From Gemmatimonadota bacterium (lineage in GTDB: Bacteria > Gemmatimonadota > Gemmatimonadetes > Gemmatimonadales > GWC2-71-9), in contig JAZDCZ010000422.1 of the NCBI GenBank assembly GCA_036679605.1, positions 1 to 17,707 on the forward strand: 17,707 nt of DNA, read 5' to 3'. The position numbers and the translations under genes are program-made. The notes under the pieces were generated by a model, which did not search any database, had not been told where the DNA came from, and saw only the letters and a program-made list of their open reading frames with translations. The number at the start of each line of letters is the position of its first letter. The first letter of the stretch is position 1. This document shows positions 1 through 14,773 of the stretch, one piece after another.

Positions 1-110
1 TGCTGAGCTGATCCAACGATCGGCCTATTACCAGCAGCGCAACGAAGCATCCTACCAAAGCCGCCGCCGATCAGCCCATCGAATGGATTCTTCGTAGCGC
101 TGTCATACTA
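1..110 (+). mobile_element. 3' end of an IS701-like insertion sequence (transposase C-terminal tail plus right end)
   Basis: The frame from position 2 reads AELIQRSAYYQQRNEASYQSRRRSAHRMDSS* (TAG 95-97), then GCGCTGTCATAC running into CTAG at 108-111. Bases 1-110 are the exact reverse complement of 17594-17703. A basic Y-x-Q-R-N...S-x-R-R tail and an end running into CTAG are typical of IS701-family elements (family call from recall). Confidence 0.75.
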
Positions 111-3100
111 GGAATCTGGATAAGTTCTCCTCAGATGTTGCATCCATCCGGTGAACACGGCCTGCGATCGCTGCAATCCTGGGCCCAGAGTAATTCCCTT
201 GGAGGGCCGTTTGCGGGTTTGCAGCGAACAGGATTCGATAAGAATAAGGGCTTTTCTGGCTGATTCCCCTAACAATGCCTACGAATAGGCGTTCGCATTT
301 GTCCTCCGTTCCAAGTTCTTTTATCCAGTGTTTGAATATCTCCATACCTGCCACGGCGTCGGCGAATAGAAGCGCCATGATTGGTGGTTGCGTTTTCTCT
401 TCCGGACATAGAAACACTGTACCGTGCCACTCCGCTTTGTCCCACAAGGCGTCACGAATGAGAGACACCGTCTCTACATCCGTGTGTTTCATCCGAGCAA
501 GATCAAAAACCCCTGGCGGGGGATCCTCCTTGCTTAAGCTGCCCTCAACGCGTTGATGCGTAGCCGGCGTCTCACCACTGCGCGCAGCCTCATACCACGC
601 CAACGACCGTGTTAATGGATAACACGTTGCTGTCGCATCTAACCACTCGGATATGGCGATCCGTGGATTATTCCCCAGGACGCCGCCAGCCGTAATGAAA
701 CTACAGCAGAAATGTAGTGCACGGTCGAGTGCGTTGTCATCCCCGAACAGCTTTCTTGCAGTATCCTCAACGTCCTTGAACACAAAGACCCGTGGCAGCA
801 ACTCGACAAAATCACGCGCCAACTGCTTCTTAAGCATCTTTTGTTCAGCAAATGTAAGGTGATTGGGGTCAAAGGTCGGGCAAAGTATTTCCCAATGCGG
901 CCGGCCATGACGGTCTGTAAACTCTGACTTCCATTCGATGCCGGTATAGGGTGATAGCCGAACTTCGCACGACAATTCTGGTTCCTTGGCCATGATGCCG
1001 TCAGCTAGGCCGGTTGACATCAACCCTTCTAGTGCGGCCAATAATGATTCTGCGACCGCCAGGCACACCACGTCATTCTGACAGACAACCGATACTGCGC
1101 ATCCCAGAATGCGAGACTCAAAGGTAACAGTGCGTTCATCGCAGTACGACGGTTGGCTTGGAAGATCTTTTCCTGCCGGTTGAGCGCGCCACTGAAGGAA
1201 ATATTTTTCAATTGCCACGTCGCCTTTGGCTACCTCTTGGAGATCCTCCTTGACTCCGGTATCTGGCCCCAGTGCGTAACGCAGTGCGAGCGACGAGCCG
1301 TGAAGTCGGTAGCGATCGAGAACGTCAGGGAGCTTCTCTAACCACTTGAGTTGCCAAACATCCGTTCGAAGAAGCAGCAATCCGAGGATGGCATCAAATG
1401 CCGATTCGCCGGGGGCAAGCTGTTCTTGATCGTAGCCCTTTTCAGCCAGCGCGGCGCGCACAGCTAGATCAATCTCATGCCATGCCAACACGAAGGGCAC
1501 TCGGCCCAACCGTAGCTCGACCCATTTCAACTTGTTGAAGCACCTACCTTGCAGGGCGGTGACATTCTCGTATGTCCAAAATTCCTGAACTGCAATTGAT
1601 GCGGCCGCCAGGAGCGTTCCCCGTGCCGCCCAAAGCAAGTCGACTTGCTCGTAGCAGCAAGCGCAAAGGTATAGGGCACGAATAATGTCTTGCCGACTCT
1701 CGTGTTTGTAAAGTCGTACCATAGCCCGGCCCAGCGTACGGATTGCCTCGGCTGGCTCGCCCATATCGTGCTGTTGGGCCGCTCGTCGAAGCAGAAGCCT
1801 GGCTGTGCTAACCTCTTGCTCACGCTGCGACGTTACCGAGATGAGGATTTCAAAAAGCTGCTGATACTCGGGCAGGTTGCCCAGATGCTCCCCCAAGTGC
1901 ATCAGGTAATCCGCTATGGCCTGCATAGGAAAACCAATAAATGCACTACAGTTCTTTATGAGACCGGCGTATTCTGCAAGTACTCCATGAATGTCCTCAG
2001 GCTCTGAGGTCACAAGGCGGATGCTGAGGAGAAGGGCTTGAGCGTTATGCGAGGCGCTGGGTCGGTCTTCCTGATCAATCAGGTGACTAACAACGCGTAT
2101 CAGAGCTTGCGTTCTTTCTCCCAACACCACCTCCTTCTCATTGAGATGGCCCGCTCTAACAAGTGAGAAAAGGACAAACCAAAGATTGGTACGCAGCTCC
2201 ATCTCAAATGGATTCGTGCTGTCCGCGGTGTGCTTCTCCAGTTCCATGTAATACCGAACAAAGTGCTCGTAGTCCTCTTGCCAGAATGCAGCGGTCCAGG
2301 CCCGGTGATACGAGAGTTGATTGCGCTGATGTTGCGTGCCACACTTCGCACCAATGGTTTCGGCCCGGTCGAAGCGACCCATTATTTCGTCGACGTGACG
2401 CTCTAGGCTCCTCGCGATCAAGGCCGACTCAATGGCATCATCCATGAGTTGTGGACCAAATCGTTGCTCCTTGCATGCCGCCGTAACTAGATCATCTATT
2501 TCTTTCAAATCCTGTTCACGTTGAAGGTCGAGCGGTCCTCGTCGAATTAGTGTTCGCGCCACGCCGTGGATTCCAAGGTGCTCCGTGGCCAGCTCTTGTA
2601 GTCCGAGGCCGAAGGTTTTGTCGAGAATCCAGGATCTGTCGAGAATGACGACACCAAACCCGTGCTGAGCACTCAGTTCATCTTGAAGCTCGCCGCGGGT
2701 CTTCGATCGGATGAATTGGTTGCTTAGAAAGAAGGCCTTACGGTAATCACGATTTGTATCGGCGATCTTCTGGATGTCCGAACGTAGCTTATCTCGCCAG
2801 ACTCGCTTTGCGCTGAATGCGAACGCCCACCGTTCTGTGTGGGCACCACCGGAATTGCCAACGTACCATGCCAGCGCGAGATCATTCGCTACCGGGTAGG
2901 TTTCGGTGTCGACCTTTGCATCGCCCCCGCCCATTGGACCCGTCTGGGGGACTAGATTTGGGCAGATCGTATGCTCCGCAAGCTTGCGGGCGAAGGTCTC
3001 AAACTGGGCCTCCTGATTTCGATTCGTGAGCGTGTCGAGATGGTATTCAAGAAGAGAGCGGTCCAACTCTGCGACCTGCTCAACGACGCTGTCAGAGAAA

Positions 3101-3156
3101 CGTTCAGGGTGGCGTGCTTGGAGGAATTCACGAGGTGAGAAACGCCCAGTTTCCAT
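103..3156 (-). CDS. Large (~1017 aa) protein with an N-terminal restriction-endonuclease-like (PD-(D/E)xK-type) domain and helical/TPR-like repeats; putative defence protein, probably C-terminally truncated by the IS
   Basis: The likely start is ATG 3156 (METGRFSPREFLQARHPERFSDS); the extra 189 aa in the ORF track are low-complexity and run across a terminator. Motifs are QFETFARKLAE...QTGPMGGGDAKVD...AFSAKRVWRDKLRSD, followed by long amphipathic helical segments. The stop codon TGA (103-105) lies inside the IS end. GC looks lower than in neighbouring genes. Confidence 0.7.
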   Translation of the reverse strand: METGRFSPREFLQARHPERFSDSVVEQVAELDRSLLEYHLDTLTNRNQEAQFETFARKLAEHTICPNLVPQTGPMGGGDAKVDTETYPVANDLALAWYVGNSGGAHTERWAFAFSAKRVWRDKLRSDIQKIADTNRDYRKAFFLSNQFIRSKTRGELQDELSAQHGFGVVILDRSWILDKTFGLGLQELATEHLGIHGVARTLIRRGPLDLQREQDLKEIDDLVTAACKEQRFGPQLMDDAIESALIARSLERHVDEIMGRFDRAETIGAKCGTQHQRNQLSYHRAWTAAFWQEDYEHFVRYYMELEKHTADSTNPFEMELRTNLWFVLFSLVRAGHLNEKEVVLGERTQALIRVVSHLIDQEDRPSASHNAQALLLSIRLVTSEPEDIHGVLAEYAGLIKNCSAFIGFPMQAIADYLMHLGEHLGNLPEYQQLFEILISVTSQREQEVSTARLLLRRAAQQHDMGEPAEAIRTLGRAMVRLYKHESRQDIIRALYLCACCYEQVDLLWAARGTLLAAASIAVQEFWTYENVTALQGRCFNKLKWVELRLGRVPFVLAWHEIDLAVRAALAEKGYDQEQLAPGESAFDAILGLLLLRTDVWQLKWLEKLPDVLDRYRLHGSSLALRYALGPDTGVKEDLQEVAKGDVAIEKYFLQWRAQPAGKDLPSQPSYCDERTVTFESRILGCAVSVVCQNDVVCLAVAESLLAALEGLMSTGLADGIMAKEPELSCEVRLSPYTGIEWKSEFTDRHGRPHWEILCPTFDPNHLTFAEQKMLKKQLARDFVELLPRVFVFKDVEDTARKLFGDDNALDRALHFCCSFITAGGVLGNNPRIAISEWLDATATCYPLTRSLAWYEAARSGETPATHQRVEGSLSKEDPPPGVFDLARMKHTDVETVSLIRDALWDKAEWHGTVFLCPEEKTQPPIMALLFADAVAGMEIFKHWIKELGTEDKCERLFVGIVRGISQKSPYSYRILFAANPQTALQGNYSGPRIAAIAGRVHRMDATSEENLSRFLV

Positions 3157-3302: not shown

Positions 3303-3491
3303 ACGGTTGCCTTCGGGGCGACGTTGGAGCTGTTCGAAACCGAGGGCGCAGCCGGTATTGGTGGTGCGCGTAAAGGGTTTGTTCGTCGCGAGTTACGGCA
3401 AATCCACGGACGACTTGAAACGACTCCGACCTGCAAACAAGAAAGGCCCGCGTTGCTCGAACGCGGGCCGGATCTCCCCGAAGGCAACCGT
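3303..3491. repeat. 16-bp perfect inverted repeat flanking a 157-bp segment
   Basis: ACGGTTGCCTTCGGGG (3303-3318) and CCCCGAAGGCAACCGT (3476-3491) are exact reverse complements. Confidence 0.85.
3435..3469 (-). terminator. Intrinsic (Rho-independent) terminator downstream of the moeA-moaA-accessory operon
   Basis: The minus strand reads GGCCCGCGTT-CGAGC-AACGCGGGCC-TTTCTTGTTT: a 10-bp perfect stem followed by a U-rich tract. Confidence 0.8.
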
Positions 3492-3760: not shown

Positions 3761-4714
3761 CTATGGATCGGATACCTGCTGAAACCATGCAAAATCAAGC
3801 AGATCAACGTCGTCGTCCAGGGCCATATCGAAGACGATAAGGCATTTGGCTGCCGTCGTTGACGGAGGATTCGGTGGTTCGTTCGGGCCGGCTTGGCAAT
3901 CCACGAACTCTCGGAAGTCGTTTAGATTTACCTCCCCATCGCCGTCGAAGTCGCCCGGCACCGGTGTAACCGTGAATGTGGAGACCGGCTGGGTGGGCCG
4001 GTTGCCGTCGAGGAAGGCGCGATTCGTGTGGAAGATCCAGCCGACATTTGCATCAAGGCCATACACGCTGAACACTGCGTCTCCGGGAAGGGCATCGAAC
4101 GCGTATTCGACGGTCACGGATGCTCCCAGCGGCGCGAGATTGACGCCGGTCAGGGCGTACAGCGTCACCATCCCGGTCCCGAACGCGTGGCTGATCGCGT
4201 CATCCGACGGCGACGTTGCCGAGTAGTAACCCGAAGGTCTTCCACTGTCGTAGGTCGGCTGATTGTAATGGCCGAAATCATCAGACGTGTCGAACTCGTA
4301 CGGCGCTGCGCCGTGGAGCCCGAGCGACATTTCGAAGCCATCCGGCAGTTCGTCGGCGTCGATGGCCACTAGGATCAGCAGATCGGTAAACGTTCGAGCG
4401 TCGCCGATGTTCTTGACGGCAAAGCTGCCGGTAAGCGCTGTGGCGACGAGATGGCCTGTATCAAGTCCCCCGTACGAAAACTGCAGAGAATTCATTCCCC
4501 GCGCGCTGTCGTCCGATCGGGCTTGGTCAAAGCCAACCTCGTAATCGCCGGCGTTGACCGTGTGCATGAGAATGCGAACTTGGGGAGGTCCGATGTAAAT
4601 CCACGAATCGTCAACCAGCGCTTCCCAAGGCTCGAACGCGGGTTGGGCGAAGCTGAGTGGTACGACCAGCAGAAATCCCAGTAGTGCTACAAACGTGCTG
4701 CGCAGTATTCTCAT
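3761..4714 (-). CDS. Secreted/surface protein with an uncharacterised beta-rich domain and a C-terminal dockerin/EF-hand-like tail
   Basis: Signal peptide MRILRSTFVALLGFLLVVPLSFA|Q. The C-terminus PVPGDFDGDGEVNLNDF...C...C..FDMALDDDVDLLDFAWFQ is the paired dockerin-like repeat common in Phycisphaerae. An alternative GTG start lies at 4726. Confidence 0.8.
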   Translation of the reverse strand: MRILRSTFVALLGFLLVVPLSFAQPAFEPWEALVDDSWIYIGPPQVRILMHTVNAGDYEVGFDQARSDDSARGMNSLQFSYGGLDTGHLVATALTGSFAVKNIGDARTFTDLLILVAIDADELPDGFEMSLGLHGAAPYEFDTSDDFGHYNQPTYDSGRPSGYYSATSPSDDAISHAFGTGMVTLYALTGVNLAPLGASVTVEYAFDALPGDAVFSVYGLDANVGWIFHTNRAFLDGNRPTQPVSTFTVTPVPGDFDGDGEVNLNDFREFVDCQAGPNEPPNPPSTTAAKCLIVFDMALDDDVDLLDFAWFQQVSDP

Positions 4715-4752
4715 GAAGTTACTCACTCTGTTGTCTCATCCGCAGGGCTAAC

Positions 4753-5355
4753 TTAATGCGTTACGTCGTTGCACCGTCGCAAACGAGAACCGAGTATTCC
4801 GCCGATCAGGCCGGCAAATAATCCGAAGAGCGCGTAGGACATCAGATTGCCCCACTCGCCCGCCGCCCACCAGAGGGCATGCGGTTTGAGCGACATCGGA
4901 GAGGCCAGACGTTTGACAAAGCACACAGTGTTGGCCAGCGCCCCGGCGCTGCCGAGCAGGACGATGAGCCACGGCGCCGCCAGCGCGCGCCGCTCGGCGA
5001 AACCGATCACCGCGTCGAGCACCACTCCGGCAACGCCGATGAGCGCCAGATGTCCCGGCCCGCCGGCAATCTGACCGCCGGTCGCCAAGGAAGCGCACGC
5101 GGCTGCGAGCGCGCCCACGGTGGCGCCTCCCGGCGCGCCCAAACGCATCCGCGCAACGATCACCGGAACCATCCAGAGCAGGGCACGATGACCGGACAGC
5201 CCCAGGTGGAGGCGAAGGTGCGGCAGGAGCAGGCCGGCGCACACGCCCACCGCGGCGCTCCCCAGGAGCATGCGCACCTGCTCGGCGTCAAATAGCCTAT
5301 TCGTGCGGTCGGCTACGTTTTCGATCAACGGGGAGCCATACATGATCGCCTTCAC
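4753..5355 (-). CDS. Integral membrane protein resembling an ECF-transporter S component
   Basis: About 170-200 aa with five to six Gly/Ala-rich hydrophobic segments. The pattern HLGLSGHRALLWM...PGGATVG...AGVVLDA...YALFGLFAGLIG follows the S-component layout. The start is uncertain (GTG 5355, ATG 5343 or ATG 5271). Confidence 0.6.
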   Translation of the reverse strand: MKAIMYGSPLIENVADRTNRLFDAEQVRMLLGSAAVGVCAGLLLPHLRLHLGLSGHRALLWMVPVIVARMRLGAPGGATVGALAAACASLATGGQIAGGPGHLALIGVAGVVLDAVIGFAERRALAAPWLIVLLGSAGALANTVCFVKRLASPMSLKPHALWWAAGEWGNLMSYALFGLFAGLIGGILGSRLRRCNDVTH

Positions 5356-6052
5356 TCCATTCCACGGGAAAAACCGGCTTGCCGTGCATCAGTCGTGGAC
5401 GTACCCAATCAAACGTTTCATATCGATCGTCCGGTGCCAGCCGATGCCGGGATGGTTCGTGTGCAAGCGAAATCCCAAGATCGGCGAATGCTTGCCGGTC
5501 AACCCGCCCGTGTAGCGTGCGCAAGCCCGGCAATTCGATGAATCGTCCGTCTTCCCCGGCGCGGCGCTGTCCGACCGAACCCAATGCTCCGATTACCCCC
5601 TGCCCACGTCCGCTGGGCGGCTCCGCCGAATGCGCGGGGGCCACGCCCAAAGCGCGCAGCTTGACTCCGGGGGACACGCCCACCCGCAATGCCTCGTCGA
5701 TCGTCAGCACGCGTTGTGCTACCAGACACCCGAAGTCCTCGATTGCCGTCGTTACGTCTGCGACCACTGAGATACAGACACCTGGATCGGAGCCGGCCGC
5801 GGACCGTTCCCTGACGAAGTCGAACGCAAAGTCGACCACGCCGATTCCTTCCGGGGACGTCACGGCGATGCAGGCGCCACTGTTGTGTGAGGTGTACGGA
5901 ATGCGCGGGTCCAGTAGAAACTGGTGCCGCGTAACGCCCAGTGGCTGCAAGTTGCGCCGCGCGCACTCCGTGCTGAGTTCACGAGCGAGGTGCCCAGTCC
6001 CGCGACTGGTCGGGTTGTCCGTGTCGTCAATGCCGATCAGGATGACGCACAT
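5297..6052 (-). CDS. Stand-alone TiaS N-terminal-like (GIDDTD) domain protein, probably ATP-dependent; function unknown
   Basis: ATG 6052 gives MCVILIGIDDTDNPTSRGTG...RHQFLLDPRIPYTSHNSG...SDPG...GQGVIGALGSVG. These blocks align by eye with TiaS motifs (GIDDTD, P-x-IP-Y-x-T-x-x-N, NPG, GRGIIGAL). At 251 aa it lacks the OB-fold and Zn-ribbon tRNA-binding domains. Confidence 0.75.
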   Translation of the reverse strand: MCVILIGIDDTDNPTSRGTGHLARELSTECARRNLQPLGVTRHQFLLDPRIPYTSHNSGACIAVTSPEGIGVVDFAFDFVRERSAAGSDPGVCISVVADVTTAIEDFGCLVAQRVLTIDEALRVGVSPGVKLRALGVAPAHSAEPPSGRGQGVIGALGSVGQRRAGEDGRFIELPGLRTLHGRVDRQAFADLGISLAHEPSRHRLAPDDRYETFDWVRPRLMHGKPVFPVEWSEGDHVWLPVDRKRSRPHE

Positions 6053-6062
6053 ACGCTTCTGA

Positions 6063-6704
6063 CTACCTGAAATCGCGGCGCGGGCTGCGTTGGATCCTTT
6101 GTACCGCGCCGTCCAGCGTGAAGTAGTTGATGCCTTTCTTGAACGTCCGATGCGCGGTGCGCTGCCCGCTGAACCACGCATCGCTGATGACCCAAGTTTG
6201 CGAGCTCATCTGGTCGCGCAGGACGCGCGGCCAGGCGACCTCCCACCGCAAAAACGTGCAGACATCACGATTGGTCGTGGCCGCACGGCAGGAGTAATAG
6301 AAATAGCTGATCTGCCCCGCGTTAAAATTATCCGCGGTGAAGCGCAGGTCGGGCCGGCGGATCGAAGGGCAGTAATAGCTGCGCGGATCGTCGACGTTAC
6401 TGCTCTCGCCCAGCAGATCGACCAGTTCGCCGTGCGGATTGTCGAGCTTCTCGTCCACGGGCAGGTACGATGCGTTCGTCCCGGCGTAGAGCAATGTGCC
6501 AATGCCGACGGTGCGCAGACGGGAACCACACACGGTCATCCAGGTTTGCTCGCGGGCCCCCCCAAGTGCCGGCAGCAGCAGCGAAATCAGCAACGCCAAA
6601 AGCGCAATGACCACCAGAAGCTCCACGAGGGTGAAGCCACTCCGTTGCCTGCGCGCGCTGGTGCGCGGCAGCGCAAATGCCGGATTGGGTTTGTCGTTAC
6701 GCAA
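6063..6704 (-). CDS. Prepilin-type N-terminal cleavage/methylation protein (DUF1559-like pseudopilin)
   Basis: It has the cleavage motif RQRSG|FTLVELLVVIALLALLISLLLPALGGARE..C...L, an internal YYCPS and a C-terminal H...G.NY...DG motif. The TTG start at 6704 is 6 bp after the moaA stop. Confidence 0.9.
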   Translation of the reverse strand: MRNDKPNPAFALPRTSARRQRSGFTLVELLVVIALLALLISLLLPALGGAREQTWMTVCGSRLRTVGIGTLLYAGTNASYLPVDEKLDNPHGELVDLLGESSNVDDPRSYYCPSIRRPDLRFTADNFNAGQISYFYYSCRAATTNRDVCTFLRWEVAWPRVLRDQMSSQTWVISDAWFSGQRTAHRTFKKGINYFTLDGAVQRIQRSPRRDFR

Positions 6705-6710
6705 GGGAGC

Positions 6711-7511
6711 TCATCCTCCCATGAGGCTGAACGTGGTTGTCAGGTTGCGCTGGCCCGCCCAGGGCTTGTGATCAATCGCGCGCATGAGCGCGTCCGTGGC
6801 GCCAAACTCGCGAACGCTGAATCCCTCGTCGCTGAACAGGCAGGGACGTACCACGCCGTCACTGCTGAGCCGCAAACGACTGCACCGGGGACAATCGCCC
6901 CCGGCCCCGCCGATCACCGGCCAGAATTCACCGGTTGCGAGATTCATACGGCGGATGAAGCGCACGATGAGTCCGTGCTCCCGCGCGAAGTCCGCCACGT
7001 TCTGCGCGTCCGGCTCATTGCACGATGATTCGATCACGCAGTTCAGCTTGATGCACTTGAAACCGGCTGCCTGCGCCGCCCGGATGCCGGTCAGGACGTG
7101 TTGCACGTTGCCGCCTCGGGATTTGGCGCGGTAGCGTGCGGCGTCGATGGCGTCCAGGCTGATGTTGAGCCGCTGCAACCCCGCCTCGGCGAGCGGCGAC
7201 GCCAGCGCTTCGAGCATCGTGCCATTGGTCGTCATGGAAAGATCGGTCATGCCTGGGATGCGCGCCAGCATGCCGACGAGTTCGACAACGTGCGCGCGTA
7301 CCAACGGTTCGCCACCGGTCAGTCTGATCTTCTTGGCGCCCAACGAAATGGCAGACCGCGCGACTTCGGTGATCTCTTCGAATGTGAGCAGATTCTCCTG
7401 CGGAATAAGCGGCACCCCGCGTTCCGGCATGCAGTAGCGGCACCGGAGGTTACAGCGGTCGGTCACCGAGATGCGCAGGTAGTCGATTGTGCGCCCCCAG
7501 GGATCGTGCAT
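6711..7511 (-). CDS. moaA: GTP 3',8-cyclase (radical SAM), short form, 266 aa
   Basis: Motifs: YLRISVTDRCNLRCRYCM (CxxxCxxC), RLTGGEPL, TTNG, NISLD, the second-cluster motif CPRCSRLRLSSDG...PCL, and the terminal MGG. Confidence 0.95.
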   Translation of the reverse strand: MHDPWGRTIDYLRISVTDRCNLRCRYCMPERGVPLIPQENLLTFEEITEVARSAISLGAKKIRLTGGEPLVRAHVVELVGMLARIPGMTDLSMTTNGTMLEALASPLAEAGLQRLNISLDAIDAARYRAKSRGGNVQHVLTGIRAAQAAGFKCIKLNCVIESSCNEPDAQNVADFAREHGLIVRFIRRMNLATGEFWPVIGGAGGDCPRCSRLRLSSDGVVRPCLFSDEGFSVREFGATDALMRAIDHKPWAGQRNLTTTFSLMGG

Positions 7512-8741
7512 CTAAATCCACTCCTGACAAAACTGCACCACTTCCAGCTCCGCGCCGGCGCTGAGTGACGTGGTCCCGCGTGGAATGACCAGGAATCCGT
7601 CTGCGTGCAGCAGTGCTGTCAAATCGGCGGAGCCGCGGTAGGCCACGGTTGCAGCCCAACCGTCCCGCGAGATCCGACAGGGAACGAACTCCGTTCGGTC
7701 ACCCGATTCTCTTGAGAAGCCGGTGGTCAGACGAAACCTAGATCGTTCCCGCGCGCCGGTGCTACCGCTCAAACGCGCCGCCGCGCGCAGGACGAACAGA
7801 TCAAAAGTCAGGTAAGCTGCCACGGGATTGCCCGGAAGGCCGAACACGAGAGCGCCATCACCCGTGGCGAACGTCGTTGGCTTGCCCGGCTTCAGCGCCA
7901 GGCGCGAAAACTGTATCTGCAATCCGCAAGCGACCATCGCTTCGGGGACGAGATCAAAATCGCCGACCGAAACACCGCCGGTGAGTACGACGATGTCGGC
8001 TTCGCGCCGCGCATGCTGTAGGGCCGCGACGATCGCTGAAAGCTCATCTGGAACGCGCACCGCGCTGAACAATTCCAAGCCGCGCTCGCGCGCCAGCTCT
8101 GAAATCAGCGGGCCGTTGGTGTTTATGATCCTGCCTGGACGCAACTCCGCGACGGAATCCACGATCTCATGGCCAGTCGAGATAATCGCTAGCCGCACGC
8201 GCCGCGTTACCTCTACCTCGGACACGCCGCACCCAATCAGGCACGCCATTTCCAAGGGCCCCAGTCGGCTTCCGGCTGGCAGGATAGTTTTTCCCTGCGC
8301 GACGTTTTCGCCGCGCCGGCGGATGTTGGTCGCTGCAGGTGCGTCCCGAAATTGTACGCGCCCGTCTTGCTCGAAGGCGTGCTCAACCATGACCACCCGC
8401 GCTGTGCCGCGAGGAATCGGAGCGCCGGTCATGACTTTGACGACGTGGCCCGGTGCTAGTGCGGCGCCCTCGCGCTCGCCTGCCGTCGTCGTGTCCGCAA
8501 GGATGTACGCCGCGTGTTCGTCGTCTGCGCGGACCGCGTATCCGTCTACGGCCGCATTGTCGAACGGGGGCAGGTCGAGTTGGGATTTCTCATCGGATGC
8601 GAGGATGCGGCCACCCGCGTGTCGCACGGGTACGGTTTCGCTGGGCATTCGCCAGCCCGCTACGCTGCGGTCCACGGCTTCCAGAGCTTCCTCGAGCGAC
8701 AGCAGGGCGGAGCGCTGACCGGATCCGGAACCTCGGCTCAC
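7512..8741 (-). CDS. moeA: Molybdopterin molybdenumtransferase MoeA
   Basis: Motifs: PPFDNAAVDGYAV, VMTGAPIP, STGHEI, TGGVSVGDFD, KPGKP, GLPGNP. The start is uncertain: GTG 8741 gives a typical ~409 aa, while ATG 8885 has a GGAGG RBS. The stop abuts the moaA ATG. Confidence 0.93.
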   Translation of the reverse strand: MSRGSGSGQRSALLSLEEALEAVDRSVAGWRMPSETVPVRHAGGRILASDEKSQLDLPPFDNAAVDGYAVRADDEHAAYILADTTTAGEREGAALAPGHVVKVMTGAPIPRGTARVVMVEHAFEQDGRVQFRDAPAATNIRRRGENVAQGKTILPAGSRLGPLEMACLIGCGVSEVEVTRRVRLAIISTGHEIVDSVAELRPGRIINTNGPLISELARERGLELFSAVRVPDELSAIVAALQHARREADIVVLTGGVSVGDFDLVPEAMVACGLQIQFSRLALKPGKPTTFATGDGALVFGLPGNPVAAYLTFDLFVLRAAARLSGSTGARERSRFRLTTGFSRESGDRTEFVPCRISRDGWAATVAYRGSADLTALLHADGFLVIPRGTTSLSAGAELEVVQFCQEWI

Positions 8742-8863: not shown

Positions 8864-8887
8864 CGATATGTTCCGAAAGGCACATCG
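8864..8887. promoter_or_regulatory. Candidate ModE-type operator upstream of moeA
   Basis: CGATATGTT-CCGAAA-GGCACATCG is an imperfect palindrome with the CG-N20-CG geometry of ModE boxes (ATCGNTATATA-N6-TATATANCGAT). It shares AGCGATATG-N10-CACAWCG with the site at 11359-11382. Confidence 0.65.
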
Positions 8888-9012: not shown

Positions 9013-9030
9013 TTGTGAAATAATTCACAA
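9013..9030. promoter_or_regulatory. Rex-type operator palindrome (also fits the CRP core)
   Basis: TTGTGAA-ATAA-TTCACAA is a perfect match to the Rex consensus TTGTGAA-N4-TTCACAA. The palindrome extends to 9011-9032 and sits in the AT-rich divergent moeA/modE region. Confidence 0.75.
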
Positions 9031-9052: not shown

Positions 9053-9134
9053 AGTACTGAGCACCGAGGTCTAGCTCGGTCTTCTTGCCCCGATCGTGGC
9101 ACGGATTCGACCGGCGAAATTGGGGAGGCCGATC

Positions 9135-9614
9135 ATGGGCAGGACCCATCCCGGCCCGCGAACAGGCCAGCCGTTAACACTCAATGATGCGTCAAATGAG
9201 CAGTGGGAGGGCCGCCTGCGTCTGTGGATCAGCGTGGGCGGACGCAACGCGCTCGGTCCAGGTAAGGTCCGCCTTCTCGACGCCATCGATGCCACCCGGT
9301 CTTTGGCGGCCGCCGCCAAGAGGCTTGGCATGAGTTATCGCTTGGCGTGGAAGCACCTCCGGCTCATGGAAGAATGGACGCACATGGCCGTGGTTGAACC
9401 GCGACGCGGTGGGCGCGACGGCGGGGGAACCGTCCTCACCCCGGAAGGACGCGCACTGCTTGCCGCTTATCACGCGTTTCGCAGCGACATGGACGCGCAC
9501 ATGCGCTCCTCATTCAACCGCCGGTTCGCGGTTTGGTCTTCCCAACCACGCCCCGATACGAGCACTGCGGGACCGCCTGCTGATGAAACGGGCGGTGCCG
9601 GTTTCGGATCGTGA
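9135..9614 (+). CDS. modE: ModE-family winged-helix regulator, N-terminal domain only (no TOBE/molybdate-binding domain)
   Basis: LRLWI...LGPGKVRLLDAIDATRSLAAAAKRLGMSYRLAW...RGGRDGGGTVLTPEG is the ModE HTH signature. A GGGGAGG RBS precedes ATG 9135. Confidence 0.88.
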   Translation: MGRTHPGPRTGQPLTLNDASNEQWEGRLRLWISVGGRNALGPGKVRLLDAIDATRSLAAAAKRLGMSYRLAWKHLRLMEEWTHMAVVEPRRGGRDGGGTVLTPEGRALLAAYHAFRSDMDAHMRSSFNRRFAVWSSQPRPDTSTAGPPADETGGAGFGS

Positions 9615-9645: not shown

Positions 9646-10290
9646 TCAGACCTTCGCGTGGGTTAACGCCGCGCCCATGCGCCCCAGCATTCCCTGATCT
9701 GACTGCTGCGACGTTGTATCGACCGGCCAAGTGAACAGCGGGCATAACAAAGGAAACGTCTGCCGCAGGCGCGCAGCCTCCTGGACTCCGCATCCGTCGG
9801 GATCGCTCGTATGAATCACAAGGTCGGTCACCTGGTGTAATACTGCCGCCGTGGCAGGCTTCATTTCACGAATCGGCGGGCGCGTGACCAGCATGACGAC
9901 CGCCGGCTGCATCAGCAGCGCGGCGCTCGAGCTCTCGACGACGATCGCCACCTCCTTGGGAAAACGATCAAGGGCGGCCTGCAGCCCGTCCGTAATGTCG
10001 CGGCCCCGATGCCGGAGTCGTTCCACGTGGAGGGCGCCCGCGGCCAGATACAAGGCGGTGTCCTTGCCCGGCCGGACAAGCTCTTCAGGGTTCTCGAAGT
10101 GGTAATCGGTTGCGGTGTCCGCGTCCGCGGCGCCCTCACCAACAGGATGCTCGTAGGCCGGGCTAATCTTCAAACAACCGAATCCGCCCAGTTGTTTGAG
10201 CAGGTAGATTACGAACGCGGTCTTTCCGGAACCCGAGTGGGGACCCACTACGGAAACGATGGTGCGACCGGCGCCTGGCCGGCTACGCAT
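9646..10290 (-). CDS. MobB-like P-loop NTPase (molybdopterin-guanine dinucleotide biosynthesis-associated)
   Basis: Motifs: IVSVVGPHSGSGKT (Walker A), GKDTALYLAAGA, IVVES. ATG 10290 overlaps the end of fdhD, suggesting translational coupling. Confidence 0.7.
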   Translation of the reverse strand: MRSRPGAGRTIVSVVGPHSGSGKTAFVIYLLKQLGGFGCLKISPAYEHPVGEGAADADTATDYHFENPEELVRPGKDTALYLAAGALHVERLRHRGRDITDGLQAALDRFPKEVAIVVESSSAALLMQPAVVMLVTRPPIREMKPATAAVLHQVTDLVIHTSDPDGCGVQEAARLRQTFPLLCPLFTWPVDTTSQQSDQGMLGRMGAALTHAKV

Positions 10291-11134
10291 CGTTCGCCGC
10301 CACACGTTGGTATCCGGTATAGACATTGAGGCGCTGGCCTCGAAGAAACCCAACGAGGGTCAACCCGAAACGACGCGCCCACTGTACGCCCATCGCAGTT
10401 GGCGCGGACGACGACGCCAGCACGGGCACGCCGTGTGCGATGGCCTTGCCCACGATCTCGGCCGAAAGCCGGCCGGTCGTGAGGGCGATGCGCTGCGAGA
10501 GATCCATGCGGCATTGCAGGGCCTTACCGGCGACCTTGTCGAACGCGTTGTGCCGGCCCACGTCCTCCGCAAACAGCAAGACTTGATCGAGGCTCGCGAT
10601 TCCGCAGGCATGTACCCCTCCCGTCTCGCGATAAAGCTTGCTCTGCCGGCTGAACGCGCGGCCCAGGTCGGTCAACTGGGAAGCGCGGACTACAAGCGGA
10701 CTGTCGAGCGGCTGGCATTCCGCGAGCAGCGAAGTGTCCCGCGCCGTTCCGCCACCACCACAGCCGGTTCCGAAAGTCCATCTTTGATGAATGCTATCGA
10801 CCGCGTCATCGTCGAAGACTCCCGTGCAGACAACCCGTCCGGCGGCGGCGTCAAAGCGCACATCGGGAAGTATCCGGCGCGTCCGCCACAATCCCTCGGA
10901 AACGAGAAACCCCAGCGCCAGCGCCTCGACATCCTCGGGCAAGGCAAGCATGGCGAGTAAGGGCACGCCGTTGAGCACCAACTCGATGCGCCGTTCCTTG
11001 ACCACGGTGTCGTACAGCGCTTCGTGCTGCCCGGAACGGGAGAAGCGGCGGATGGGCCAGGTGGTGGTCCGCTCCGTGTCGCCGGCGGGCGCCGTCGTCG
11101 TCGGGAGTGCCTCAGTCTGTTGTCCGTCTGGCAT
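10283..11134 (-). CDS. fdhD: Formate dehydrogenase accessory sulfurtransferase FdhD
   Basis: Motifs: LALGFLVSEG, GTGCGGG, YRETGGVHA, EDVGRHNAFDKVAG, TTGRLSAEIV.KA, LVGFLRG. The likely start is ATG 11134. Confidence 0.95.
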   Translation of the reverse strand: MPDGQQTEALPTTTAPAGDTERTTTWPIRRFSRSGQHEALYDTVVKERRIELVLNGVPLLAMLALPEDVEALALGFLVSEGLWRTRRILPDVRFDAAAGRVVCTGVFDDDAVDSIHQRWTFGTGCGGGGTARDTSLLAECQPLDSPLVVRASQLTDLGRAFSRQSKLYRETGGVHACGIASLDQVLLFAEDVGRHNAFDKVAGKALQCRMDLSQRIALTTGRLSAEIVGKAIAHGVPVLASSSAPTAMGVQWARRFGLTLVGFLRGQRLNVYTGYQRVAANDA

Positions 11135-11358: not shown

Positions 11359-11382
11359 CGATATGCTTGGCAAAACACAACG
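11359..11382. promoter_or_regulatory. Candidate ModE-type operator between fdhD and fdhA
   Basis: CGATATGCT-TGGCAA-AACACAACG has the CG-N20-CG geometry and the same AGCGATATG-N10-CACAWCG pattern as 8864-8887. Confidence 0.65.
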
Positions 11383-11680: not shown

Positions 11681-14600
11681 ATGCTCGTCACACGTAGAGA
11701 TTTTCTCAGGGTCACTGCGGCATCCGCCGGAGTGGCCGCCATCGGCATGGGCTTCGGGTTCGCCCCCGTTGAAGCGCATGCGGCAAGACTCCGCAAGAAT
11801 CTCCAGGAGGCCACGCGCACCACGACGATATGTCCGTTCTGTGCTGTGGGCTGCGGGTTTGTCGTCCATGCCTCCGGTGGCAAGGTCATCAACATCGAAG
11901 GTGACTCAGACCACCCGATCAACGAGGGGACGGCCTGCTCGAAGGGTTCCTCCATCTTTCAGATGGCGAACAACGACAATCGGCTCACGAACGTGCGCTA
12001 TCGGGCGCCGTTCGCTACCGAATGGACGGAGATGGGCATGGGCGATGCCATCTCCATGATTGCCCAGCGCATCCAGGCGACGCGGGACGCGACGTTCGAG
12101 ACGGTCAATGCCGGCGGAGCCACGGTCAACCGCACGCTCGGTATCGGATCGCTCGGCAGCGCCGCGATGGACAACGAGGAATGTTGGCTATACCAGAAGT
12201 TCTTGAGGGCGCTCGGCCTGGTGTATATTGAACACCAGGCCAGGAACTGACACTCTGCCACTGTCGCCAGTCTGGCGACCGGATTCGGCAGAGGGGCCAT
12301 GACCAACCACTGGATCGACATCAAGAACAGCGATGTCATCCTGATCATGGGCTCGAACGCGGCTGAGAATCATCCCATCTCCTTCCGTTGGGTCACCGAA
12401 GCCCGCGTCAACAACAACGCCACGCTGATCAGCGTCGATCCCCGCTTCACCCGTACCTCCAGTCGGGCAGATATCTACGCCCCGCTGCGGAGCGGGACGG
12501 ATATCGCGTTTCTCGGCGGCATGCTGAACTACATCCTCGAGAACGACCTGATCCACACCGAGTACGTCGTGGAATACACCAACGCGGCGTATCTCGTCGA
12601 CGAGGACTTCAGCTTTGATCCCGCCACGGGTCTGTTCAGCGGCTATGACGCGACCAACCGGAAGTACGACACCACCTCGTGGAACTTCCAAACCGACGCG
12701 ACCGGCGTCATCCTGCGGGACAAGACGCTCGAGGATCCGCGCTGCGTCTATCAGATCCTCAAGGAACACTACCGGCGCTACACGCTCGCGAAGGTCTCGA
12801 GCATCACCGGCACGCCGCAGGACAAGCTGCTCGAGGTCTATAAGGTTTACGTCGAGCGGTCGTACCAGCCCGGGACCTCCGGAACCATCATGTATGCCAT
12901 GGGCTGGACGCAACACACCGTGGGCGCCCAGAACATCCGGACGATGTCCATGATCCAGCTCTTGCTGGGCAACATCGGCGTGGCGGGCGGCGGCGTCAAC
13001 GCCTTGCGCGGTGAATCCAACGTGCAGGGTTCGACGGACCATTGTCTGCTCTTCCACATCCTGCCGGGATACCTCAAGACGCCGGAGGAGCAGTACCCGA
13101 CGCTGGCGGACTACAACGGGAAATGGGCACCGACGGCCCGACCGACCCCGCCGGGCGAACCGTTGAGCGCCAACTGGTGGGGCAACTATCCCAAGTACAT
13201 CACCAGTTACCTGAAGAGCATGTACGGCGACGCCGCGACCGCGGCCAATGACTTCGGGTATGGGTGGCTGCCCAAGCGCGATGCCGGCGGGAACTACGCG
13301 TGGCAGCCGATGTTTGACGCCATGTACAACGGGACCGTCAAGGGCTTCTTCGCCTGGGGTCAGAATCCCGCCAACAGCAGCGCCAACGCCAACAAGGTTC
13401 GCCAGGCATTGGCCAAGCTCGATTGGCTGGTGACCGTCAACATTTACCCGACCGAGACCGCCGAGTTCTGGCGTGGCCCGGATATGGATCCCGCCTCCGT
13501 CGGTACTGAGGTGTTCCAGTTACCCTGTGCCTCTTCTGTCGAGAAGGAGGGCAGCATCACGAACTCGGGTCGCTGGGCGCAATGGCGCTTCAAGGCGATT
13601 GAACCGCCGGGCGACGCAATGCCTGATTCCGAGATCATGGACCAGTTGTACACCGCAGTGAAGGCGCTCTACGACGCCGGCGGCGTGTTCCCCGATCCCA
13701 TTCAGAATCTCAAGTGGGATTACTTCACCGGCGCAGAATTGCCTGCGCGCTTAATCGCCAAGGAGATCAACGGGTACTTCCTCGAGGACTATGAGGAAGC
13801 GGACGGCACGCTGCGTCAGGCGGGCGACTTGGTGCCCAGCTTTTCCAAGCTGCGCGATGACGGCAAAACTTCGTCGGGCAACTGGCTGTACTGCAACTCG
13901 TATACCGATCACGACTTTAACGTGGGCAACAAGATGGCGCGCCGCATCGCCGAGACCACCGGGATCGGTTTGAACCCAGAGTGGTCCTGGTGTTGGCCGG
14001 TCAATCGACGCATCGTCTACAACCGGGCAAGCGTGGACCTCACCGGTCAACCTTACGATGCAGCCACGCCGGTCATCTCGTGGGACGGCGAGAAGTGGGT
14101 GGGCGACGTGCCCGACGGTGGCTGGCCGCCCATGGATCAGGGCGAGGCGTCCAGGCTACCCTTCATCATGCAGCCGGATGGCGTGGGCAAAGCATTCGCC
14201 AACGTTACGGGCGCGTCCACCAACGACGGTCCTGTTCCCGAGCACTACGAACCGTTCGAGTCGCCGTTGGCCGCCAACCCGATGGGCCACACGAGTCGCG
14301 TCAATCCCGTCGCGTTTGTTCCGCCCGCGGCAGAGATGAATCCGCTGGCGGAACCGGGCGGTGCCGACTTTCCTATCGTGGCCACCAGCTATCGCATGGT
14401 GGAGCACTGGCAAACGGGCGTGATGAGTCGATGGGCACCCTGGCTCAACGAGTTGCAACCGGAAATGTGGGTCGAGATGTCCGAGGAGCTCGCCGCGGAG
14501 AAAAGCATCGCCAATGGCGATCGCGTCCGCGTACGGAGCATCCGCGGTGAAATCAAAGCCGTGGCTATCGTCACGAAACGGTTCAAGCCCTTCAACATTC

Positions 14601-14773
14601 AGGGCCAAACCGTTCATGAGGTCGGCCTGCCCTGGTGCTACGGGTGGGCGGCTCCGGTTCGTGATCCCGCCCGGGTCAGCAACGCCAATCTGCTCACGCC
14701 GAACGTGGGCGATCCCAATACGCGTATCCCGGAAAGCAAGGCATTCATGGTCGACGTGGTGAAGGAGGCATAA
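11681..14773 (+). CDS. fdnG: Tat-exported selenocysteine-containing formate dehydrogenase alpha subunit (FdnG/FdhA type, Mo/W-bisPGD), 1030 aa with Sec at codon 190
   Basis: It has a GGAGG RBS, a Tat motif TRRDFL and a 4Fe-4S motif CPFCAVGC...CSKG. EHQARN-[TGA 12248-12250]-HSATVASLATGFGRGAMTNHW joins ORFs 11681-12250 and 12299-14773 in the same frame. Further motifs are ALRGESNVQG, WPVNRRIVYNRAS and PESKAFMV. Confidence 0.97.
12248..12279 (+). promoter_or_regulatory. Selenocysteine UGA codon and bacterial SECIS hairpin
   Basis: TGA, 12 nt, then GTCGCC-AGTCT-GGCGAC (12263-12279). This is a perfect stem with a GU-containing loop at the position expected for fdnG/fdhF-type SECIS elements. Confidence 0.9.

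Follow-up and report, generated by a model that had tools for sequence, protein, structure and literature searches.

A conserved TiaS-like enzyme and an S-component-like membrane protein at the core of a candidate ModE-linked scavenging module

Introduction

The contig JAZDCZ010000422.1 (assembly GCA_036679605.1, deposited as a Gemmatimonadota bacterium), analyzed over its whole length of 17,707 nucleotides and referred to here as the window, contains a minus-strand run of six genes. Behind moeA and moaA, both genes for the molybdenum cofactor (Moco), lie four further genes encoding a pseudopilin, an enzyme resembling the N-terminal part of TiaS, a membrane protein resembling the S component of energy-coupling factor (ECF) transporters, and a secreted surface protein. 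What could four such genes be doing at this position? A sequence-only reading of the window had proposed an extension of the moeA-moaA operon for import and salvage, supplying the neighboring formate dehydrogenase. Gene content, conservation, operator, and fold are the basis of the reading we prefer, in which the module would be a scavenging line of the ModE regulon, switched on when molybdenum or tungsten (Mo/W) is short, for Mo/W held in an organic complex. We give this reading roughly even credence; the cargo would be one beyond the reach of ModABC and TupABC.

A conserved core with alternative outer-membrane components

A genome scan led by the enzyme provided the best 80 of 285 confirmed loci. 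The 33 Planctomycetota loci considered below comprise 24 from this similarity-ranked scan and nine from a sample of 251 genomes of one class, which held 14 enzyme carriers, four of them already in the alignments. One row in both the 33- and the 80-locus counts (L032) is an unpublished genome. The core, consisting of the TiaS-like enzyme and the S-like protein, was found in at least seven phyla, with an S-like gene in 70 of the 80 TiaS-like loci. Within the 33 Planctomycetota loci, 31 encode the pilin, 29 the S protein, and 24 the surface protein; 21 have the complete set of four, and several of the misses coincide with contig ends. The usual order is surface protein, pilin, enzyme, and S, and the window has the surface gene last. 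Across the class sample, the surface protein accompanies the enzyme in 12 of 14 carriers and occurs in 0 of 237 non-carriers. Co-occurrence of the four genes had been set beforehand as a test, and the 21 complete loci bear it out; by these counts, the four genes are a conserved Planctomycetota module.

Only the enzyme and the S-like protein are universal. In the 56 loci outside the module-bearing Planctomycetota, one of two TonB receptor families is encoded in 26, a lipoprotein of 150 residues related to Cys-less sulfite-oxidase-type domains in 21, and the pilin or the surface protein in none. TonB receptors at three cyanobacterial loci (L037, L048, L053) were excluded from the receptor count because they are of siderophore type, unrelated to the two module families. 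A Plug domain match was absent from 12 of 32 Planctomycetota carriers, and in the other 20 neither receptor has an orthologue (maximum scores of 122 and 111 bits to the two receptor profiles, versus 757 and 1051 in positive controls); five of the Plug-less carriers have four to seven secretin matches each. The pilin and surface protein would then be a Planctomycetota substitute for the TonB receptor. The four-part import module of the sequence-only reading is partly supported: its two inner parts recur across phyla, and among the loci compared its two outer parts were seen in Planctomycetota only.

Several gene arrangements around these receptor parts deserve mention. The Bacteroidota version (L055, L057, L060, L061, L073, L084, L089) has a second ModE box followed by an unnamed 300-residue lipoprotein, the receptor, and a protein with a type IX secretion system tail, all in a stretch at roughly +1.3 to +5 kb relative to the enzyme gene. 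Two divergent copies of the lipoprotein and receptor flank the enzyme/S pair in L091 and L092 (Rikenellaceae/Tenuifilaceae). Lipoproteins made of degenerate Oxidored_molyb domains (L046:5774-7246, L058:8490-9947, L079:8179-9552) occur in triplicate alone beside WtpA, or fused to TupA.

A parallel to the pilin cassette is seen under B12 control. An independent check drew on 15 cobalamin riboswitches in 10 carriers. The 10 operons with a secreted-looking first gene were examined (L128-L137); the remaining five riboswitches front cob or other cytoplasmic genes (by eye). All 10 operons encode PEP-CTERM- or dockerin-tailed proteins and then a pilin, against a background for the pilin pattern of 1 in 206 kb; six include DUF4465, and no TonB receptor was present in the 48 of 65 open reading frames (ORFs) scanned. 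DUF4465 proteins are proven B12 binders that elsewhere occur alongside TonB receptors (PMC13398666), as with Bacteroides BtuJ and BtuB, where a surface binder is likewise encoded with an outer-membrane step. The Planctomycetota DUF4465 proteins bear the same PEP-CTERM or dockerin tails and are followed by a pilin; unlike BtuJ, the surface domain in the window belongs to a different, unnamed family. The terms planctomycete, pilin, PEP-CTERM, and dockerin occur 0 times in the main text of PMC13398666.

Linkage to molybdenum and tungsten

Eleven of the 24 similarity-ranked Planctomycetota loci have genes of the moa/moe type next to the module, versus none of the nine class-sample loci, where the module is often on its own, preceded by modE or by a box of its own. 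The link to moeA-moaA is therefore optional, and the module cannot be described as an extension of that operon. Dedication to the neighboring formate dehydrogenase fares no better, as neighbors elsewhere are TupA or WtpA, aldehyde oxidoreductase, or a nifH/vnfH-like gene. The broader association with Mo/W, in turn, is upheld by ModE boxes and by moaC, which is present in 73 of the 80 carrier genomes and, in the class sample, in 13 of 14 carriers versus 111 of 237 non-carriers (p 6e-4, with kin not independent).

Recurrent neighbors include TupA-like binding proteins (a cluster in 17 loci), regulators combining helix-turn-helix and periplasmic-binding-protein-like domains (HTH-PBP; 19), moaC (15), and moaA (13). 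In Chloroflexota the core pair often lies between an HTH-PBP regulator and tupABC, and in Bacteroidota it adjoins modE and aldehyde oxidoreductase. Three of four cyanobacterial loci (L037, L048, L053) place it beside an HTH-PBP regulator and a nifH-like gene, resembling a vnfR/vnfH pair. WtpA is also found among the neighbors; L037 and L048 additionally have nifE/nifN-like genes, and the S gene of L034 is truncated to 124 residues. ModABC, TupABC, and WtpABC under ModE have the same operator type, and TupA and WtpA are often in the module's own operon, but the module shares no component with these systems.

The palindrome first noticed in related loci corresponds to the published ModE consensus of E. 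coli, ATCGNTATATA-N6-TATATANCGAT (PMC545781), and to the motif tested in Methanosarcina acetivorans, RTTATGT-N8-RCATAAY (PMC12327845). Exact boxes occur in 14 of the 80 loci, whereas eight other spacer lengths give 0-1; allowing one mismatch, the count is 27, versus 3-7 for other spacer lengths. In Bacteroidota and Gammaproteobacteria, a box is found some 45-60 bp ahead of the enzyme gene, and another precedes the receptor part. In Planctomycetota, a box at no more than one mismatch precedes the module in 15 of 33 loci; modE, moa, moe, or fdhD is present in 17, and either a box or such a gene in 22.

The TiaS-like enzyme

A profile search against known structures matched the enzyme to TiaS residues 1-151 (E 1e-10), with the DDTD motif and Thr18 in register, and Y-x-T-x-x-N as well. 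Its predicted structure (predicted local distance difference test score, pLDDT, 91.5) superimposes on 3amt with Z 20.0 and a root-mean-square deviation (rmsd) of 2.0 over 152 aligned residues; the best unrelated chain reaches Z 6.8. The TiaS-N-like assignment is thus confirmed by both routes. D9, D10, T11, D12, T19, R42, H43, Q44, T54, and N57 are invariant in 65 homologues, and the family is large, with 6,976 proteins at E 1e-10 among the 8,000 candidates scored.

The enzyme is not TiaS itself, because the remainder of TiaS (beyond residue 151 of 420) has no counterpart. The TiaS family model NF040849 gives 32.3 bits against a cut-off of 600, over profile positions 3-152 of 422. What is shared with TiaS, the tRNA(Ile2) 2-agmatinylcytidine synthetase (PDB 3AMT, 4RVZ, 3U02), is the N-terminal kinase fold; the window enzyme, by comparison, has 251 residues rather than 420, is bacterial, is coupled to a transporter, and ends in a C-terminal part peculiar to it, in which G169-R170 is invariant and W216-R218-P219 nearly so. 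In TiaS, Thr18 is the phospho-acceptor; the enzyme phosphorylates this residue in itself and also the C2 oxygen of C34. For the window enzyme, fold and active-site residues can be assigned by homology, and any substrate would follow from context.

The S-like membrane protein

The S-like protein has 200 residues (about 20 kDa class), six hydrophobic segments by hydropathy, and a PGH motif. It matches YkoE (5edl) weakly by profile (E 1.5) and Trep_Strep at 13.3 bits against a cut-off of 28.7, and no NCBIfam family was matched. Atlas clusters related to it carry the label 'Thia_YuaJ' (0.95) or, at 0.91, PF09819 in 31% of members. Homologues in three Chloroflexota loci (L058, L059, L062), with profile E-values from 1e-21 to 5e-25, lie in operons that also encode an ECF ATPase and CbiQ/EcfT. 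A few Chloroflexota loci thus resemble the Group I ECF transporter YkoEDC (S component YkoE, PDB 5EDL), to which the S-like protein has weak profile similarity, in encoding a double ATPase and a T component in one operon. Most loci, including the window, differ from YkoEDC in lacking an ECF module beside the S gene and in lacking control by a thiamine pyrophosphate (TPP) riboswitch. No CbiQ/EcfT was found in 8 of 8 gammaproteobacterial and Bacteroidales carriers.

The possibility that the enzyme is the motor of the S component was considered and rejected: because it is kept beside full ECF modules (L058, L059, L062, L063), it would more plausibly be a processing step.

The pseudopilin and the surface protein

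The pseudopilin has a prepilin cleavage site and hydrophobic helix (PF07963, 32.3 bits), and TIGR02532 is matched by 18 of 23 family members. Its C-terminal domain is conserved, with C59, C112-P113, S174-D175, H185, and K190-G191-N193 invariant in the 23-member alignment. The window protein has no PF07596 match, and no NCBIfam family of the TIGR04294 type was found in the 23 members; relative to DUF1559 (H-X9-DG) pseudopilins, the spacing here is H-X12-DG. One orthologue (L108) has a short PF07596 match, so the family may be a divergent branch of DUF1559.

The secreted protein is, on its model (pLDDT 78.1), a member of an unnamed all-beta family. Fold searches with its domain recovered the common beta-sandwich and no more, the top match by Z being 7fe0 (Z 7.5, rmsd 3.4 over 139 aligned residues; Foldseek TM 0.37), and an Atlas search gave no usable match. 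Its tails are interchangeable among orthologues, being dockerin-like in the window and PEP-CTERM in many others; PF00404 scores 14.8 bits against 22.9 for the window tail and is listed for the orthologue P0010. The domain has 129 relatives at E 0.001, including repeated domains of methanogen surface proteins, and 3 of 125 methanogen-type relatives also carry a domain like that of the SUOX-type lipoprotein. Methanogen-type kin at L142, L143, and L144 are found as tandem copies, divergent from MoxR/DUF58/vWA genes, or as repeats within giant PKD/beta-propeller surface proteins.

A possible mechanism and its alternatives

A route for the cargo can be outlined. The tail-anchored beta-sandwich protein would bind it at the cell surface; the pseudopilin, with the cell's type IV filament/secretin machinery, would carry binder or cargo through the outer membrane, a role suggested by the replacement of the receptor gene by the pilin. 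The S component would then take the cargo through the inner membrane, perhaps acting alone and in most cases with no EcfT/A module dedicated to it, and the TiaS-like enzyme would O-phosphorylate it with ATP, trapping it and readying it for MoeA or for release of the metal. Such a scheme has a precedent in cobalamin uptake by BtuB, the solitary S component BtuM, and trapping by BtuR (PMC6072759). Both would comprise an outer receptor, a solitary S-fold protein in genomes without EcfT, and a co-encoded putative trapping enzyme. The module differs in having a ModE-type operator instead of a B12 riboswitch, another S family, and a TiaS kinase domain as its enzyme; in Planctomycetota, moreover, the pseudopilin and surface protein replace the receptor gene.

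The apparent need for a TonB receptor, or its substitute, and for an ATP-using enzyme points to an organic cargo rather than free molybdate or tungstate. Mo/W in an organic complex is favored because carriers make pterin, the operator is of the metal type, and the operon is often shared with oxyanion transporters. The likeliest cargo would be pterin cofactor that other cells have released, or products of its degradation, with a metallophore complex as an alternative; the target is more likely the metal than the pterin.

Several observations weigh against such a Mo/W scavenging line. Eleven of the 33 Planctomycetota loci lack both a Mo gene and a box with one mismatch or fewer in the sequence covered, although several of these are short contigs, and the box pattern was defined after inspection of some of the loci that it was used to score. 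Distant methanogen-type kin of the surface domain have no Mo/W neighbor or box at three loci. Metal sensing by the window ModE is not assured, because the protein lacks a molybdate-binding domain; additionally, E. coli ModE activates genes too (PMC12327845), so that expression of the module under metal scarcity is a presumption. Assignment of the S component is supported by weak matches plus context, and in 23 of 32 Planctomycetota carriers CbiQ/EcfT is encoded at another place in the genome, so the S protein may not be solitary in that phylum. Most of the genomes are incomplete metagenome-assembled genomes (MAGs), in which a cognate receptor was not found rather than proven absent. A pilin cassette for thiamine was also sought and not seen: all four TPP riboswitch matches, in five carriers, front thiC/thiG.

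A cargo of metal-free pterin is one way to account for the same genes. The module would then salvage or repair cyclic pyranopterin monophosphate, dephospho-molybdopterin, or a deaminated 2-oxo form and feed MoeA/MobA, with the enzyme re-phosphorylating the cargo or activating the 2-oxo group so that an amine can displace it, in the way TiaS acts at cytidine C2. It is established that ECF S components bind organic cofactors, and moa/moe/mob genes are co-located in 11 of 33 loci. The outer-slot lipoprotein of Chloroflexota and Bacillota is linked by hhalign (probability 97, E 3e-11) to Cys-less sulfite-oxidase-type domains, a profile of which weakly matches the pterin-binding protein PruR (7rkb, E 0.12; 7kp2, E 0.19; PMC13259868); the Chloroflexota lipoprotein itself has no direct PDB match, making the link to PruR indirect, through the related profile. 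Against pterin salvage, the lipoprotein lacks (by eye) the Trp and Tyr tied to pterin binding in that article; the operator is of the metal type, with no Moco riboswitch in the window or in the 16 loci scanned; and cyanobacterial copies adjoin nifH/vnfH-like genes, whose enzyme needs no pterin. Carriers also synthesize their own pterin, by the moaC count above, and salvage by auxotrophs was rejected on the same count. We consider pterin salvage unlikely. Lower still is our estimate for a different micronutrient, for instance a vanadium complex or a selenium compound, that would be required during Mo shortage or for the assembly of Mo/W enzymes. The three cyanobacterial loci with a regulator and nifH-like gene resembling vnfR-vnfH, a pair that is Mo-repressed in Anabaena variabilis (PMC4284476, PMC8461463), speak for it, as does the formate dehydrogenase of the window with its in-frame TGA and element resembling a selenocysteine insertion sequence (SECIS). 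Most carriers, on the contrary, belong to non-diazotroph lineages in which the module adjoins Moco genes and transporters for tungstate or molybdate; the recurrent neighbor clusters include no selenium or vanadium gene, and the vnfH identity is putative.

Two further alternatives concern individual parts. The pseudopilin and surface protein might be merely co-regulated surface or adhesion proteins with no role in transport, the core still importing something; neither has a characterized ligand, the surface protein resembles generic beta-sandwiches (best Z as above), a DNRLRE/PEP-CTERM protein takes its place in L031 and in the unpublished L032, and it is missing from the locus in L013, L020, L106, and L108. 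Their strict co-occurrence with the enzyme in the class sample, their fixed position beside the core, their mutual exclusion with the TonB receptor, and the proven ligand binder in the same slot of the B12 cassettes all count against this, and we hold it to be a minority possibility, if one of some weight. That the enzyme modifies RNA or a free nucleoside as TiaS does, with an incidental Mo link, seems very improbable: TiaS chains alone stand out in the sequence and fold searches, but the match stops at residue 151 with a score far under the family cut-off, and translational coupling to the membrane protein and upstream ModE boxes do not fit an RNA modifier.

Returning to the Mo/W scavenging line, its Planctomycetota form invites a wider and more doubtful conjecture. 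Cofactor import in this phylum might employ cargo-specific pseudopilins, PEP-CTERM/dockerin binders, and a shared secretin rather than TonB, the present locus being the Mo/W-cofactor version, which would capture cofactor that other cells release, with a solitary S component and a TiaS-type small-molecule kinase as trap. If true, it would represent a bacterial uptake route for Moco or the tungsten cofactor, an importer of micronutrients driven by a pilus, and a reaction new to the TiaS fold. New here is one orthologous core for which TonB receptor and pilin cassette appear as alternatives, and this exchange constitutes a natural swap experiment. Outer-membrane uptake becomes a testable job for the planctomycete pseudopilin class, with a second nutrient besides B12. 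A possible undescribed acquisition of organic Mo/W is relevant to metal-limited anaerobes and diazotrophs, and the enzymes form a large unstudied family reusing the TiaS kinase domain. A 2026 review describes pterin passage across bacterial membranes as unknown (PMC13259868). Among the titles and abstract openings examined in the literature, none mentions a bacterial stand-alone TiaS domain, a ModE-controlled ECF S component, or a part for planctomycete pilins in the uptake of cofactors; the module genes could appear as hypothetical ModE targets in RegPrecise or in supplementary regulon tables. The core can be tested in cultured carriers, e.g., Tolypothrix tenuis PCC 7101 and Lentisalinibacter sediminis.

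Organization of the window

The six packed, co-directional genes and closing terminator described by the sequence-only reading are confirmed by the ORF spacings and the hairpin (Table 1). Intergenic distances are 0, 6, and 10 bp, an overlap of 59 (or 47) bp, and 38 (or 26) bp. All 66 of 66 adjacent TiaS-like/S-like pairs in other loci also overlap (first possible start used); an overlap rather than a gap is the real option here, and the enzyme gene appears translationally coupled to the S-like gene. moeA and moaA look like ordinary family members: for moeA, homology to relatives begins at the 8741 start (a GTG codon), and moaA scores 267.9 bits with TIGR02666, slightly below the cut-off of 284, with equally short forms in relatives. 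Hidden Markov model searches supported the family calls only in part, with N_methyl above its Pfam cut-off and TiaS_TCKD, Trep_Strep, and Dockerin_1 each below. Terminator-like sites number 16 in the scan versus 15.4 in shuffles, i.e., no excess.

Table 1. Positions and supporting evidence of the annotated elements in the window
Feature	Position	Strand	Evidence
moeA, molybdopterin molybdotransferase	7512..8741	-	MoeA_N, MoCF_biosynth, MoeA_C above cut-off
moaA, compact 266-aa GTP 3',8-cyclase	6711..7511	-	Radical_SAM match
Pseudopilin	6063..6704	-	PF07963 and TIGR02532 above cut-off; prepilin GFTLVE site
Stand-alone TiaS kinase-domain (TCKD-like) enzyme, 251 aa	5297..6052	-	Profile and fold match to TiaS
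ECF S-component-like membrane protein, 200 aa	4753..5355 (or 5343)	-	Hydropathy, weak profile matches, ECF context
Secreted all-beta protein, dockerin-like tail	3761..4714 (or 4726)	-	Relatives, model, tail
Intrinsic-terminator-like hairpin closing the six-gene run	3435..3469 (hairpin 3469-3445)	-	10 pairs, T tail
ModE-type operator CGATATG-N10-CACATCG	8864..8887	.	1 mismatch of 12; 122 bp upstream of moeA GTG
Second ModE-type operator	11359..11382	.	1 mismatch of 12; between fdhD and fdhA of formate dehydrogenase operon
Palindrome TTGTGAA-N4-TTCACAA (Rex-like or CRP/FNR-like)	9013..9030	.	Between divergent moeA and modE promoters
ModE DNA-binding-domain protein	9096..9614	+	HTH_1 sole Pfam match; TIGR00637 80.8 bits, below cut-off 98.5

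The ModE-like box claimed upstream of the run is present. The second box claimed there, labeled Rex-like, exists as a palindrome, but the label is not unique: the site fits the consensus of HcpR, a CRP/FNR-type regulator (TTGTGAnnnnnnTCACAA; PMC545781), just as well as that of Rex, and it was found in none of the 84 related loci scanned. No molybdate-binding (TOBE/Mop) domain was detected in the window ModE by Pfam or NCBIfam, and no search aimed at a separate sensor was made in the source organism, of which the assembly includes a part. Rfam searches found no riboswitch in the window; the 16 of 80 loci scanned for a Moco riboswitch gave only three SAM riboswitches, on the opposite strand.

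The window is one complete contig of a 6.7-Mb assembly with 6.3% contamination. By tetranucleotide clustering it is separate from the main set of 4.5 Mb and groups with short contigs totaling about 0.6 Mb, a group that also contains most of the dockerin-tailed proteins, so the assembly looks chimeric; 11 similar dockerin-like tails occur elsewhere in the assembly. A tree made by a quick method, rather than a careful search, places the window enzyme within a clade of 22 Planctomycetota rows (support 100), and its nearest relative is from a Phycisphaerae MAG (66% identity). Among relatives of the assembly's own lineage, the TiaS-like enzyme is found in 4 of 400 and the surface-protein gene in 0 of 60. 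Because of the tetranucleotide grouping, the Planctomycetota clade, and the lack of the surface gene in own-lineage relatives, the contig is probably a Phycisphaerae contaminant, and the remaining assembly is therefore uninformative about the host.

Other genes of the window include a minus-strand protein of about 1,000 or more residues (103-3153) in a region of lower G+C content (52-56%), with no Pfam or NCBIfam match. The selenocysteine formate dehydrogenase noted as a neighbor is present: the large subunit (11681-14773), with a twin-arginine translocation signal, is interrupted by an in-frame TGA (12248-12250), and a SECIS_3-like element lies at 12245-12303 (E 0.0066, under the gathering score). 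It is predicted, from these features, to be a selenocysteine enzyme; fdhB, fdhE, and then a class III cytochrome c lie downstream of fdhA. A 235-residue P-loop protein with a weak MobB match is encoded at 9646-10353, and comparable domains occur ahead of MobA or fused to it in L018, L020, and L028.

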